Virus record (IMG/VR): IMGVR_UViG_3300049988_000286
Coordinates: 416,001 to 480,000 of that record
DNA: 64,000 nucleotides
Source: a virus
Taxonomy: Duplodnaviria; Caudoviricetes
Reading direction: 5' to 3' (one strand)
The stretch's first letter is position 1. Every line of letters begins with the position of its first letter. The position numbers and the translations under genes were made by a program. Positions 15,342-53,448 of this stretch are shown piece by piece. The notes beneath the pieces are model-generated. The model did not search any database. It saw only the letters and a program-made list of their open reading frames with translations, and was not told the DNA's origin.

Positions 15342-16073
15342 ATGGACCCCATCTACATCCCAGCCTTTGTCGATCGCGACATCGCCGATCAGGAGTTCAC
15401 GCGGCTGTGGGACACGCTCGATTGGGAGCGTCGCCCGGATGCACCGCGTCGCGAATACTGGCAGAACAACTACGGCGTCCCGTACACCTACGGTCGCGGC
15501 GCTGGTCTGCGCACCTACGAGGCGCGTCCGTGGGACGGCATGGTCGAGGCGTGGATGCAGCGCCTCAATACCGAGCATGGCTTCGCGCTCGACTGCTGCT
15601 TCATCAACGGTTACGAGACCAAGCGCGACTCGCTCGGCTGGCACGCTGATGACAGCCCGGAGATGCGTGTCGATCAGCCCGTTATCTCCTTGTCGCTGGG
15701 TGGCGAGCGCGACATCGAGGTCAGGGAGAATGCGACGGGCGAGACGCAGCGATTTCGGCTCGGTCACGGCAGCGTGTTCATCATGCCGCCGGGATTTCAG
15801 CAAACGCATCAGCACCGCATTCCCAAGGCGGGATACGATGTTCCGCCGCGCATCTCCCTTACCTACCGCGCGCTCGATCTCGCGGTCATCGCTCCCGCGC
15901 GTCTGGCGCTGTTGGGCTGGGACGTGAGCCCGGCCGTTCTCTATGACGAAGAGGGCGTCGAGGGTTGGCGTTGGGAGCGCGACGGTCGCGAGATCACCGA
16001 GATCGGGTCGCATGACGAGCCGCTGGTCGTCCCGGATGAACTCATGGAATTGTTGGAGAAATCGAATGGGTAA
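15342..16073 (+). CDS. AlkB-family 2OG-Fe(II) dioxygenase
   Basis: INGY, WHAD (HxD), SLSLG, HRIPK and RISLTYR motifs. Confidence 0.9.
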   Translation: MDPIYIPAFVDRDIADQEFTRLWDTLDWERRPDAPRREYWQNNYGVPYTYGRGAGLRTYEARPWDGMVEAWMQRLNTEHGFALDCCFINGYETKRDSLGWHADDSPEMRVDQPVISLSLGGERDIEVRENATGETQRFRLGHGSVFIMPPGFQQTHQHRIPKAGYDVPPRISLTYRALDLAVIAPARLALLGWDVSPAVLYDEEGVEGWRWERDGREITEIGSHDEPLVVPDELMELLEKSNG

Positions 16074-25740: not shown

Positions 25741-26277
25741 ATGCGCCTTGCCCTCCTCGCCATTCTGCTACTCACGGGTTGCACCACCACTAGGGTGACT
25801 CTTCCCCAGCGTAGTGCCACCGAACAACTCCTCATCAGCGAAGCCGCCGAAGCTGCTGCTGTCGCGATCCACCTCAATCTCGGCTCTCGCAAAGCTTTCC
25901 TCGATACCACCAACTTCGAGGGGGTGGATGCCCGCTACGCCATGTCGGCGATCCGGGAATCCCTGCTACGGCAGGGTAATGCGATCGTTGACAACCGTGA
26001 CCTCGCCGATACCATCATTGAGGTGAGGGCAGGAGCGCTATCGATAGACAGTGCCACAAAGGTGCTCGGTATTCCGAGCGTCGATGTCCCTCGCTTCTTT
26101 ATCCCCGGCCTCAACATCGTTTCGCGCACCCGCAACACCGGCGTGGCCCGCTTCTCACTCTTTGCCTACGATCGCGCTACCGGGAAACTGGTAGCCTTGG
26201 TGGCACCGGTGACCGGTTACAGCCGCCGTGACACCAAATCGTTTGGGAGCGTCATCGCGTGGAGCGCGCAGCGGTGA
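25741..26277 (+). CDS. Late lipoprotein, host-like
   Basis: Signal peptide with lipobox LLTGC; ATG 4 nt after TAAATA. Confidence 0.8.
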   Translation: MRLALLAILLLTGCTTTRVTLPQRSATEQLLISEAAEAAAVAIHLNLGSRKAFLDTTNFEGVDARYAMSAIRESLLRQGNAIVDNRDLADTIIEVRAGALSIDSATKVLGIPSVDVPRFFIPGLNIVSRTRNTGVARFSLFAYDRATGKLVALVAPVTGYSRRDTKSFGSVIAWSAQR

Positions 26278-27095
26278 TGCGTGACCTCATCAATCTGATC
26301 GAGGGGGCGGGCGTCACCTACCGGGTTTCACAAGGACCAGACACCTACCGCTTCATTTACGATAATCATCCCAGCGTCTTCCATGACAAGAGGATCAAGT
26401 ACTTTGATCCCAAGGAGAGCGTGAGGGAGATTCACGTGATCGCAGAAATGGGTGATCTCGTAATCGGCATGGCGGGAATGCAAGTCAATCCGCATGATAC
26501 GGAGCAACTCTGGATTAAGTTCATTTCGGTCGATCCCGCCTATCAAGGGCGCGGCATCGGCAAGACTCTCCTGCGCCACATCTACCTCTATGCTGATGAG
26601 CATGGCTTCAAGATGGCACCGGGGAGTTTCTCACCGGAGGGAGAGCGTTTACGCCATCTTCATGATGAATGGGATAAGGAATTCCCACGCGTCGCCTATG
26701 ACCGTGACAAGAACGGTAACTACATGAACTCCAAGGGTCAGATCGTCCGCATGAACGAGGGTCATTCGTGGAGCCAGTGGGTGCGGCCCGGCGACGAGAT
26801 GGTCACCATCGATGTCGAGAAGGTCAGGGCATCATGGGCGCTCGACCGAGACTTCTATTTCGATGATGGTGACCACCCCAACGCGATCCGGGGACGGGTG
26901 TCTCGTTTCAACCAATGGCTGGAGCGCGGCGAAGCAATCGGCTTGCCTGAACTGTGCCTCAATCCATCCGGGGAGATTACCTTCATCAACGGTCGCCATC
27001 GGTTCGTGGCGCTGATGCAACGCGGCGTCGAGAGTCTCCCCGTCGCGGTTCCGGTAGATCAGGCTGACGAGTTTCGTCTGCGGTTCGGAAAATAG
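26277..27095 (+). CDS. GNAT acetyltransferase fused to ParB/Srx-like domain; capsid-targeting N-terminus
   Basis: ISVDPAYQGRGIGKTLL (acetyl-CoA motif A); FINGRHR; MRDLINLIE. Confidence 0.8.
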   Translation: MRDLINLIEGAGVTYRVSQGPDTYRFIYDNHPSVFHDKRIKYFDPKESVREIHVIAEMGDLVIGMAGMQVNPHDTEQLWIKFISVDPAYQGRGIGKTLLRHIYLYADEHGFKMAPGSFSPEGERLRHLHDEWDKEFPRVAYDRDKNGNYMNSKGQIVRMNEGHSWSQWVRPGDEMVTIDVEKVRASWALDRDFYFDDGDHPNAIRGRVSRFNQWLERGEAIGLPELCLNPSGEITFINGRHRFVALMQRGVESLPVAVPVDQADEFRLRFGK

Positions 27096-27123
27096 TTGTT
27101 GACACCCAAAAGCTCGTGTGAGA

Positions 27124-27129
27124 TAAATA
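27124..27129 (+). promoter_or_regulatory. Late promoter (TAAATA) of the His/Tyr leader and tRNA array
   Basis: Same motif and spacing as the other 18 leaderless late starts. Confidence 0.75.
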
Positions 27130-27134
27130 CTCCT

Positions 27135-27179
27135 ATGAACACGCAGAGCCATCACACCTATTATCATTACCACGCGTAA
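27135..27179 (+). CDS. His/Tyr-rich leader peptide MNTQSHHTYYHYHA
   Basis: ATG AAC ACG CAG AGC CAT CAC ACC TAT TAT CAT TAC CAC GCG TAA; 4 His + 3 Tyr; precedes tRNA-Tyr/His genes. Confidence 0.75.
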   Translation: MNTQSHHTYYHYHA

Positions 27180-27290
27180 GCGGGGTCGTGGTAACGCGTC
27201 CTCGTTTCGGGGACGATGAAGGTGTGAAAGAGCCAGCGTGGCACTCTCCCCATAGTTGAACCCGCGAAGACGCAGATGATTTGCGTATCA
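27152..27290 (+). promoter_or_regulatory. Attenuator-like structured leader RNA
   Basis: Perfect 8-bp helices 27167-27174/27187-27194 and 27152-27159/27220-27227; hairpin 27197-27215; alternative pairing 27170-27175/27237-27242. Confidence 0.6.
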
Positions 27291-27300
27291 TGTTGCTAGT

Positions 27301-27384
27301 GGGTCGGCTGGACACGAGTGAGTCCACCTGACTGTAAATCAGACGCTTTGGCTGTGAGGGTGCAAATTCCTTCCCGGCCCACCA
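27301..27384 (+). tRNA. tRNA-Tyr(GUA) with atypical D- and T-loops
   Basis: Acceptor GGGTCGG/CCGGCCC, A73, CCA; anticodon loop CT-GTA-AA; long variable arm; T-loop TGCAAAT. Confidence 0.85.
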
Positions 27385-27407
27385 AGCAACCAAAGAACAG
27401 TGATCAG

Positions 27408-27484
27408 GTGCGGCCGAGGCTGACTTGGATGAGGCGCGCGGTTGTGATCCGCGAGATAGTGAGTTCGAACCTCACCGGTCGCCC
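27408..27484 (+). tRNA. tRNA-His(GUG), CCA not encoded
   Basis: CGCGG-TT-GTG-AT-CCGCG; T arm GTGAG-TTCGAAC-CTCAC; G-1:C73. Confidence 0.85.
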
Positions 27485-27502
27485 CTGAACACTGTTCACC
27501 TT

Positions 27503-27596
27503 GGGAGGTGCCCCCGCTCGCCGGTTGTAACCCGGTGGTCTCTAATAAGGGTGGGAAGCATTGAGGCGATGGGTGCAATTCCTACACCTCCCACCA
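27503..27596 (+). tRNA. Atypical tRNA-Tyr(GUA)-like gene with truncated D arm and very long variable region
   Basis: Perfect acceptor GGGAGGT/ACCTCCC, A73, CCA; GCCGG-TT-GTA-AC-CCGGT; T-loop TGCAATT. Confidence 0.6.
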
Positions 27597-27599
27597 CGT

Positions 27600-27674
27600 G
27601 GCGTTGGTAGCTCAATGGTAGAGCGCTCGATTGTGGATCGAGATACGCGGGTTCGATCCCCGTCCTTCGCCCCA
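27600..27674 (+). tRNA. tRNA-His(GUG)
   Basis: Canonical D arm GCTC-AATGGTA-GAGC; CTCGA-TT-GTG-GA-TCGAG; TTCGATC; G-1:C73; CCA; two U-U pairs in the acceptor stem. Confidence 0.9.
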
Positions 27675-27702
27675 GACCTTCTAACAAGTCCCTAAATATG
27701 TC

Positions 27703-28080
27703 ATGCGCAACTTCATCGATATCGTCAACGAAACTGTTATGTCGGATTCCGACACCTACTATTATGTTGTTGGGAAGGTGCGCGACCTCTATACGATGAG
27801 GGCAACAATCGACGGCTATTGCGAAGATGGCGTGATCTACCTCGATCTTATTTCGGTAGACGATGCCGGTAACGGTGTCGGCACAGAGATGATGAAGGAA
27901 ATATGCTTCAACGCGGATGATCACCACATCGCCATAGAGCTTGAAGCGGGATCACACGGTCGAGGCAATATCAGTCAGAGAAAGCTGGAAGATTGGTATG
28001 GCCGGTTTGGTTTCAAGAAAACTGGCGCGGTCTCAAGCGAAGACCATCCCTATATGCGCAGAGAACCCTCTGCTACTTAA
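27703..28080 (+). CDS. GNAT acetyltransferase with capsid-targeting N-terminus
   Basis: LISVDDAGNGVGTEMM, LEDWYGRFGF; MRNFIDIVNE 4 nt after TAAATA. Confidence 0.8.
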   Translation: MRNFIDIVNETVMSDSDTYYYVVGKVRDLYTMRATIDGYCEDGVIYLDLISVDDAGNGVGTEMMKEICFNADDHHIAIELEAGSHGRGNISQRKLEDWYGRFGFKKTGAVSSEDHPYMRREPSAT

Positions 28081-37375: not shown

Positions 37376-37460
37376 TGGTCCCCCGGACGAGAATCGAACT
37401 CGCTGATGCTTTCGCAAACAGGCGTGAGAAACCTGCGTCCTGCCATTAGACTTCCGGGGG
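37376..37460 (-). tRNA. tRNA-Glu(CUC) with long variable arm
   Basis: Acceptor CCCCCGG/CCGGGGG, A73, CCA; CAGGT-TT-CTC-AC-GCCTG; V arm TGC-GAAA-GCA; TTCGATT. Confidence 0.88.
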
Positions 37461-37461
37461 A

Positions 37462-37545
37462 TGGCCGCGCTGACGGGAATCGAACCCGCTTCTGCTTTCG
37501 CAACAGGAGTGAAAGTCCTGCGTCCGCCCATTAGACTTCAGCGCG
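37462..37545 (-). tRNA. tRNA-Glu(UUC) with long variable arm
   Basis: Acceptor CGCGCTG/CAGCGCG, G73, CCA; CAGGA-CT-TTC-AC-TCCTG; V arm TGC-GAAA-GCA; TTCGATT. Confidence 0.88.
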
Positions 37546-37577: not shown

Positions 37578-37628
37578 AGAAACAGAACCAAAATCACCCG
37601 CGCCGTCGAGGCGCGTGAAAGCGCACTC
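37578..37628 (-). promoter_or_regulatory. Terminator/antiterminator-like switch upstream of the tRNA-Glu pair
   Basis: Hairpin CGCGCC-tcgac-GGCGCG (37599-37615) with U-rich tail; competing GAG+GCGC helix (37608-37628). Confidence 0.5.
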
Positions 37629-37674
37629 AACCGATCGAGCGTTCGCGTTCCATGAGGGTGTAGGTCGTGTTCAT
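37627..37674 (-). CDS. Leader peptide MNTTYTLMERERSIG
   Basis: ATG 5 nt after TAAATA (37680-37685); two GAA codons; same ATG AAC ACG start as the His/Tyr leader. Confidence 0.6.
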   Translation of the reverse strand: MNTTYTLMERERSIG

Positions 37675-37718
37675 GTTTTTATTTATGCCTGAACGGCATC
37701 CGGGCGTCAACATCTTTT

Positions 37719-51828: not shown

Positions 51829-53448
<1,620 letters not shown>

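Follow-up and report, generated by a model that had tools for sequence, protein, structure and literature searches.

Leader ORF and tRNA array

A short open reading frame (ORF) rich in histidine and tyrosine codons stands directly in front of a tRNA array for the same two amino acids in a phage genome, and the question raised by this locus is whether the ORF controls the array. The locus lies at positions 27124-27674 of the window, which is the whole 64,000-nucleotide stretch of DNA that was analysed (bases 416001-480000 of the single IMG/VR virus record IMGVR_UViG_3300049988_000286). The record is 499,572 bp long with 57% G+C, is estimated to be complete, and encodes a transfer-messenger RNA (tmRNA) and more than 45 tRNA genes. 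The common view of phage tRNA genes is that they are constitutive codon-usage helpers or decoys against tRNA-cleaving defences. Our analysis indicates that this stretch is probably a sensor which is read by the ribosome and sets the output of the phage His/Tyr tRNA operon. A codon sensor over a cognate tRNA array was proposed in a preliminary description of the DNA, and it is now supported by sister units in the same genome, by other phages, by a nearly invariant leader, by the spacing of the ORF to the TAAATA promoter box and by competing hairpins.

The ORF consists of 14 codons right after the promoter. Seven of the eight consecutive codons 6-13 encode His or Tyr, as the preliminary description had stated, and the remaining one Thr. 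His or Tyr makes up 7 of 13 leader residues against a background of 5.3% (P = 1.4e-6). As in attenuators, the regulatory codons are cognate to the operon product, in this case to the anticodons GUG and GUA of the array. Three sister units share the first three codons with this ORF and also have the 5-nt spacing behind the box. The positions of all features are collected in Table 1.

Sister units in the genome

There are seven units in the genome in which the promoter heads a tRNA array, and in each of them a short ORF (sORF) with an excess of residues that match its own array follows the promoter. The ORF begins 4-5 nt after the box in six of the seven units, while the Pro/Leu unit has an ORF led by a Shine-Dalgarno sequence. 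For example, a leader with MNTNTTF and then 14 codons only for Val, Ala, Gly, Arg or Asn precedes an array of Met, Gly, Val, Gly, Arg, Arg, Val, Asn, Ala, Asn and Ala tRNAs. A leader ending in QRQQR precedes two tRNA-Gln, one with RKRKR precedes three tRNA-Lys, and one with 12 consecutive Leu/Pro codons, followed by a canonical terminator, precedes eight Pro/Leu tRNAs. The leader MNTTTSSTTISWSITFG, with Thr, Ser, Ile and Trp codons, stands before Ile, Ile, tRNA-???, Thr, Thr and three Ser tRNAs; the tRNA-???, for which ARAGORN gives the 4-nt anticodon 'tcca', is probably Trp(CCA). The Glu unit has ERER in its leader and two tRNA-Glu behind it, and the His/Tyr leader precedes Tyr, His, a tRNA-like element and His. 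Among all 5040 permutations of the seven units, the true pairing of leaders and arrays gives the highest count of cognate residues.

The amber-suppressor tRNAs have plain promoters and no leader, and no sense codon could report on such tRNAs. Two of these tRNAs with the anticodon CUA are located outside the window at genome positions 102238-102314 (+) and 106351-106425 (-), each behind a plain promoter. Another contig, G001 (at L007), also has two CUA tRNAs, which hints at TAG readthrough or recoding in these phages.

Units in other phages

The pairing of an sORF with cognate tRNAs recurs beyond the six sister units in other phages, including cultured ones. We scanned viral and metagenomic contigs for the promoter plus ATGAACACG. 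The matches comprised DEREED-like leaders of the MNT type before tRNA-Asp/tRNA-Glu, in three independent contigs that all have canonical terminators, and Thr/Ser/Ile/Trp leaders before Ile, Ser, Trp and Thr tRNAs. The same leader logic was found upstream of unannotated homologues of the Tyr tRNA in cultured phages. In CcrColossus, a leader with MMTYRNNVRQIRVRQFN is followed by an annotated rho-independent terminator and then by an array of Tyr-like, probable Phe, Val, Ile, Ile, Val, Gln, Gln, Asn and Arg tRNAs. A second unit of this phage has a leader rich in P, K, L, H, A and S before Pro, Pro, Lys, Leu, Leu, His, Ala and Ser, and a third has a leader with ERE...D before Glu and Asp tRNAs. 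The CcrColossus-type leader is present in 27 phage records, including Magneto, Karma, Swift, RB23, BL57 and Brevundimonas phages. In Sphingobium phage Lacusarx, the leader MFTQTTLLTQCHYWQLLSSSSL precedes Ser, Tyr-like, Leu, Leu, Thr, His, Gln, Ser, Cys and Trp tRNAs; 20 of its 21 residues are cognate, and all amino acids of the array are represented, His and Tyr included. An AT-rich contig group (L046 type) has a leader with NYLYWCPP, a terminator, and then Trp, Pro, Tyr and Cys tRNAs; the matches of this unit to cultured phages in BLASTN lie only in the tRNAs.

From eight CbK-like sequences (seven phage records, e.g. Kabachok, and the IMG/VR contig L042) we can see that the order of the residues in the regulatory part of the leader varies while the alphabet Y/R/N/Q/V/I/F is kept. 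In CcrColossus, Kabachok, Magneto, RB23 and others, a canonical terminator separates this part from the Tyr-like, Phe, Val, Ile, Gln, Asn and Arg tRNAs. Such shuffling would fit selection on codon identity and not on the peptide.

For 13 non-redundant units from several phage groups, the Fisher-combined probability is 4e-28, and none of 200,000 random re-pairings of these units reached the observed score. The leader codons thus covary with the tRNA payload across the units.

The leader gives a prediction, from sequence, of the tRNAs that share a transcription unit, and also helps to find unannotated ones. This logic revealed the Tyr-like and Phe-like genes that had been missed in CcrColossus and Lacusarx. 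They are Tyr(GUA)-like tRNAs at L004 1501-1587 (CcrColossus) and L006 1501-1579 (Lacusarx), and a probable tRNA-Phe(GAA) at about L004 1589-1660; both Colossus tRNAs lie within CcrColossus 68364-68523. The genome papers of the two phages state that they lack tRNA-Tyr, and mention neither leaders nor attenuation.

Promoter and leaderless expression

The TAAATA box of the His/Tyr unit can be read directly at 27124-27129. In the whole genome there are 171 such boxes, and 117 of them have ATG or GTG 3-6 nt downstream (83 exactly at +4); 98 of those 117 sites open ORFs of at least 50 codons. Because so many boxes closely precede a start codon, most of these with ORFs of real length, the TAAATA box appears to mark the transcript starts of leaderless mRNAs at the initiation codon, and leaderless mRNAs seem to be the main expression mode of the phage. 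TAAATA, 4 nt and ATG head about 100 protein genes, for example at window positions 27693-27705. Judging by the position of its ATG, the His/Tyr ORF would be translatable at the very start of its transcript, as in an attenuator.

The box had been called a late promoter. The box itself stands, whereas the label 'late' is unproven: a T4-type late promoter has TATAAATA at -10 and no -35 element, and here GATAAATA is present, yet the consensus TTGACA lies 17 nt upstream. TTGAC occurs at matching spacing in 10 of the 171 boxes, and 8 of these 10 head tmRNA or tRNA units. When the pattern is taken as TTGAC(A/G/C), 16-20 nt and TAAATA, there are nine copies genome-wide, consisting of one for the tmRNA, seven for tRNA arrays and one at genome position 168462 that is followed by nothing recognisable. 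What sets the tRNA and tmRNA units apart from other TAAATA units is an added consensus -35, which most other boxes do not have. The tmRNA is permuted and lies outside the window at genome positions 15527-15913, with the same TTGACA and TATAAATA promoter as the tRNA units. A tmRNA with the same promoter arrangement is found in a related 266-kb contig (L010 in contig G001).

Conservation among related strains

Strains were compared using contigs from four runs of different studies, which are 5-6% diverged overall and cover the leader. In the stretch before the leader (27033-27117) there are at least 19 substitutions among the strains, six of them in the promoter spacer. From 27118 to 27254 there is a single change among the differences listed (27220 A>C in one strain); this count is a lower bound, as nine differences lie beyond those listed, and the contrast with the flanks is still strong. 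The next change is 27255 G>A in two strains. Within the sORF (27135-27179) no substitution occurs among the differences listed in the four strains. From 27279, strain X2 diverges, and strain X3 swaps tRNA-Tyr and the first tRNA-His (27279-27501) for 109 other bases. In these alignments the leader looks like a conserved module that ends sharply at 27278 on its 3' side and is apparently joined to an exchangeable payload. The replacement in X3 starts exactly at the 3' edge of the leader module, which suggests modular exchange of the payload.

RNA structure of the leader

The preliminary description had noted that the His/Tyr codons are themselves base-paired, in front of a structured spacer. Both helices proved to be exact complements, namely 27152-59 TCACACCT with 27220-27 AGGTGTGA (helix A) and 27167-74 TTACCACG with 27187-94 CGTGGTAA, and folding recovers them or a one-register variant. 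The alternative partner GCGTGG is present as well, at 27236-41 and not at 27237-42. The predicted fold of the leader beats 198 of 200 shuffled sequences (z = -2.65).

Three hairpins can be formed, 1:2, 2:3 and 3:4 (hairpin C), and in the predicted fold they overlap pairwise and are hence mutually exclusive. In the free leader RNA, the ORF is predicted to supply the 5' side of a long stem with interruptions, which comprises helix A, 1:2 and hairpin C. If the ORF is masked to imitate a ribosome that has stalled at the His/Tyr codons, 2:3 is predicted in place of 3:4; when the mask extends to the stop codon plus 9 nt, as with a terminating ribosome, hairpin 3:4 is restored. Hairpin C is thus predicted to form in free RNA and with the ribosome at the stop, and to be lost with the ribosome on codons up to 12. 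Three exclusive helices selected by ribosome position, as known from attenuators, are therefore predicted for this leader. Folding of truncated transcripts gave no distinction between the free and the stalled state. Sister unit U5 has a helix analogous to 1:2 with changed bases, and the Thr/Ser/Ile/Trp family has the same helix layout with different bases, two of its four members showing the same predicted flip.

Two other structures were discarded. In one, the full-length minimum free energy fold, the region of the start codon is paired with 27270-27292; it was dismissed because strain X2 has six changed and two inserted bases in that segment, none of them compensated, and because synteny is lost at 27278/27279 in strain X3. 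The other, a weak hairpin at 27271-27289 considered as a terminator, falls outside the conserved module and is not relied on.

Proposed mechanism

In the mechanism that we propose, RNA polymerase would start at or beside the A of the ATG at 27135 and produce a leaderless mRNA, on which a 70S ribosome would translate the 14-codon ORF with His and Tyr at codons 6-13. If charged tRNA-His and tRNA-Tyr are plentiful, the ribosome would reach the stop codon and cover segment 2 (27180-27194), so that segments 3 and 4 pair as hairpin C (27197-27215), which would be the 'off' state. If they are scarce, the ribosome would stall at 27150-27173, and the free segment 2 would capture segment 3. Hairpin C would then be blocked and the polymerase would proceed into tRNA-Tyr, tRNA-His, the tRNA-like element and tRNA-His. 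The new tRNAs would relieve the stall, giving a negative feedback loop on tRNA supply. We infer that the ORF is translated, that the switch works in this direction and that transcription ends at hairpin C or a nearby site; stalling would, in this scheme, raise tRNA output.

Intrinsic terminators were found in units U4, U7, L001, L018, L035, Colossus, Kabachok, L042 and L046, and for Kabachok, L042, L035 and U4 the terminator is predicted to melt only with a ribosome on the cognate codons. Because several units have genuine terminators and four of them are predicted to melt when the ribosome stalls on cognate codons, premature termination is likely to be the common output of these units. More generally, the unit comparisons suggest that the phages probably tune tRNA output to the speed at which ribosomes read the matching codons.

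Several results count against this interpretation. In the search of sequencing runs, the locus was present in no RNA run. Outside near-identical strains no homologues of the His/Tyr leader were found, and its helices are not checkable by covariation. Taken singly, the leaders of the Lys, Glu and Asp/Glu units are weak (P = 0.09-0.49), and a leader is missing from some arrays (L053, the Cys tRNAs, the suppressor tRNAs). Equilibrium folding showed no loss of the terminator in Colossus, L001, L018 and L046. Finally, helix 3:4 of the His/Tyr unit lacks the form of an intrinsic terminator, a GC stem with a U tract after it. The absence of a visible U-tract terminator was already remarked in the preliminary description, and we agree: no hairpin-plus-U-tract terminator was called in 27180-27300, hairpin C is followed by GAUGAAGG and not by a U tract, and since no U tract follows any hairpin in 27180-27278, intrinsic termination here is doubtful. 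Rho or another factor may be needed for termination at hairpin C.

Alternative explanations

The missing U tract leads to the alternative that the sensor is the same while its output is Rho-dependent termination, or a step of RNA cleavage or stability within 27180-27300, with hairpin C and a three-way fold that sequesters the ORF setting the access for Rho or RNase and not releasing the polymerase on their own. In favour of such an output, the conserved module has no U tract; the untranslated leader is predicted as a long interrupted duplex of the C-rich ORF with G-rich downstream segments (-47 kcal/mol), and units U2 and Lacusarx also have a GC hairpin without a U tract that abuts the first tRNA. 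However, the region downstream of the ORF has no long unstructured tract that is rich in C and poor in G, canonical terminators are present in most of the sister and homologous units, and mature tRNAs are stable, so that cleavage of the leader would control little. We consider this output rather unlikely for the His/Tyr unit, although it deserves more weight than the three explanations below.

It could be argued that the leader is a mere structured 5' spacer for processing or folding of the tRNA precursor, with the ORF and its His/Tyr codons being incidental, since, as one would expect for an RNA element, the leader is kept in its nucleotide sequence and synonymous changes are absent, and translation of the ORF is predicted only. 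This is hard to reconcile with a codon content that follows the tRNA payload in 13 units from several phage lineages, with CbK-like leaders that keep their alphabet under shuffling, with an ATG at the same fixed distance as in about 100 leaderless genes, and with the fact that every ORF stops just ahead of the switch helices; we regard the spacer explanation as very improbable. Direct sensing of tRNA by codon-anticodon pairing, as in a T-box and without translation, would account for the several leader triplets that are complementary to anticodons of downstream tRNAs. Yet cmscan (E up to 10, positions 26900-27900) returned tRNA hits and chance matches and no T-box or riboswitch, the many cognate triplets lie in one frame from an ATG at the transcript start to a stop, and multivalent leaders for up to eight amino acids are unlike a single specifier, so we give direct sensing hardly any credence. 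The same low weight goes to a function of the 14-residue His/Tyr peptide itself, for example as a metal-binding or enzyme-modulating micropeptide. Its sequence is invariant among the strains, but the sister peptides are unrelated to it in sequence, with the match to the tRNA array as the sole common trait, and homologous leaders conserve composition and not sequence.

As to what a ribosome-read sensor would be for, an answer to tRNA-cleaving defences such as colicin E5 and the retron PtuAB (PMC11555353) would be an attractive possibility. Matching of tRNA supply to the codon demand of the phage accounts for the data equally well. It is possible, and we put it forward only tentatively, that these leaders form a widespread modular class in phages, with the codon alphabet rewritten for each payload, which serves as an inducible spare-tRNA response when host tRNAs are depleted or cleaved by anticodon nucleases or other tRNA-targeting immunity.

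Comparison with known systems

When compared with the leader-peptide attenuators of enterobacterial amino-acid operons (trpL, hisL, thrL, ilvL and pheL; models in PMC1183508, pheL in PMC3082878), the phage units share the 5' short ORF, the run of regulatory codons (multivalent leaders included), and helices 1:2, 2:3 and 3:4 set by the ribosome, and sister units also have the hairpin-plus-U terminator. They differ in being phage-encoded, in that the His/Tyr unit is leaderless and its 3:4 has no U tract, and in controlling tRNAs cognate to the sensor codons in place of biosynthetic enzymes or synthetases. As the payload tRNAs read the sensor codons, the loop closes on the tRNA supply itself.

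Polycysteine leaderless sORF attenuators are described in mycobacteria (bioRxiv 10.1101/834739). They resemble the phage leaders in the leaderless AUG start, in a codon run that senses one amino acid and in acting in cis. They belong to protein-coding genes of Cys metabolism on a bacterial chromosome, whereas the phage payload is an array of untranslated tRNAs, and therefore the output cannot be translational coupling. T-box riboswitches likewise sense the state of a specific tRNA, with antitermination as the action that is also proposed here. Their contact with the tRNA is direct and uses a single specifier codon together with a T-box motif; here there is no such motif and the codons form a translatable ORF.

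Phage tRNAs are known to counter tRNA-cleaving immunity, as with the T5 tRNA-Tyr against PtuAB of retron Eco7/Ec78 (PMC11555353; bioRxiv 10.1101/2023.03.15.532788). Like T5, our phage carries its own tRNA-Tyr, among others, which could replace a depleted host tRNA; unlike in that case, where regulated expression of tRNAs by demand is not described, a sensor is proposed here, and no nuclease or defence system is linked to the locus. Our literature search, whose coverage is incomplete so that an earlier description is possible, did not find leader-peptide control of tRNA genes described.

If the proposed mechanism is true, phages measure decoding speed codon by codon and adjust their tRNA output, and this would be the first attenuator whose product is the sensed molecule. 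If the inducible spare-tRNA response is true as well, tRNA supply would be a quantity that is sensed and defended during infection. The design occurs in cultured Caulobacter, Brevundimonas and Sphingobium phages and is thus directly testable in a model host. It could also provide compact, reprogrammable codon-specific sensors for synthetic biology.

Features and neighbours of the His/Tyr unit

Table 1. Features of the His/Tyr unit and of the Glu unit, in window positions.
Feature	Position	Strand	Remarks
-35 hexamer TTGACA, perfect	27099-27104	+	read directly from the sequence
Conserved leader module	27118-27278	+	in four related strains
-10 box GATAAATA (TAAATA promoter element)	27122-27129	+	17 nt downstream of TTGACA
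Leaderless sORF MNTQSHHTYYHYHA and stop, 14 codons	27135-27179	+	ATG 5 nt after TAAATA
Regulatory run CAT CAC ACC TAT TAT CAT TAC CAC	27150-27173	+	codons 6-13
Hairpin 1:2, 3' part of ORF with post-stop segment	27161-27194	+	-14.2 kcal/mol; includes helix 27167-74/27187-94
Alternative hairpin 2:3	27178-27207	+	-16.7 kcal/mol; predicted fold once the ORF is masked by a stalled ribosome
Hairpin C (3:4), ribosome-gated in prediction	27197-27215	+	-12.2 kcal/mol; no U tract behind
Helix A, 3' arm	27220-27227	+	pairs with 27152-27159 in the ORF; perfect 8-bp duplex, -13.1 kcal/mol, in co-transcriptional folds
tRNA-Tyr(GUA), class II, CCA encoded	27301-27384	+	Infernal 29.2 bits; ARAGORN at relaxed threshold
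tRNA-His(GUG)	27410-27485	+	ARAGORN and Infernal, 43.1 bits
tRNA-like element with GUA stem-loop, 93 nt	27503-27595	+	called as tRNA by neither ARAGORN nor Infernal
tRNA-His(GUG)	27601-27674	+	ARAGORN and Infernal, 61.3 bits
Glu unit: TTGACG -35, CATAAATA, sORF MNTTYTLMERERSIG (37674-37627, ERER)	37627-37710	-	
Glu unit array: tRNA-Glu(UUC), tRNA-Glu(CUC)	37462-37545, 37376-37460	-	after hairpin and U-rich tail

The array in Table 1 was described at the outset as four tRNA genes, Tyr, His, Tyr-like and His. The first, second and fourth hold, and the third is only tRNA-like. The Infernal call of tRNA-Tyr spans 27301-27381 and its score is barely above the gathering score of 29. CbK-like and Lacusarx phages contain unannotated homologues of this gene with 77-81% identity. 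With its threshold set very low, ARAGORN gives hundreds of false tRNAs, and that setting was used only for this Tyr call. The third element has an acceptor-like stem of 8 bp, a GUA stem-loop, a T arm like that of Tyr tRNA and an encoded CCA. It scores 16 bits against the Sec model, is negative in ARAGORN, and aligns with Tyr tRNA in its 3' half; it is kept in strains X3-X5. A Cys(GCA)-bearing tRNA-like element at genome positions 52105-52180 resembles it. With 84-95 nt, many of the phage tRNAs exceed the usual length, among them Met, Arg, Asn, Cys, Gln, Glu and Ile(UAU).

The next gene, at 27703, has its own TAAATA four bases before the ATG, and therefore the His/Tyr unit holds only these RNAs. 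Its neighbours are two GNAT-type acetyltransferases, a DUF6655 protein and a peptide deformylase; in CbK-like phages a deformylase likewise lies just upstream of the tRNA array. For the flanking proteins 26259-27092 and 27703-28077, no homologues were found in IMG/VR. BLASTN of the locus against cultured phages gave matches confined to the tRNAs, and a degenerate DNA pattern for HHTYYHYH gave three chance matches in IMG/VR, located in unrelated coding DNA without tRNAs.

Some minor observations concern other units. The motif TCTTTGACAT (TCTTTGAAAT in one unit) occurs in long spacers between leader and first tRNA, in the units at 25.4, 350.6 and 403.3 kb and in L003 and L019; it is conserved and has no properly spaced -10 box. 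Outside the window, at genome positions 393149-393230 (-), a five-codon ORF MHQLI behind TAAATA ends in the rare ATA codon and directly precedes tRNA-Ile(UAU), the reader of ATA; it is too short to judge. ORFs for HNH endonucleases lie inside tRNA arrays at about 26.2-26.85 kb of the genome and at L006 840-1190. Lastly, L007 of contig G001 contains, on the reverse strand at 225-314, a 29-codon ORF that resembles the PqqA precursor of pyrroloquinoline quinone synthesis.

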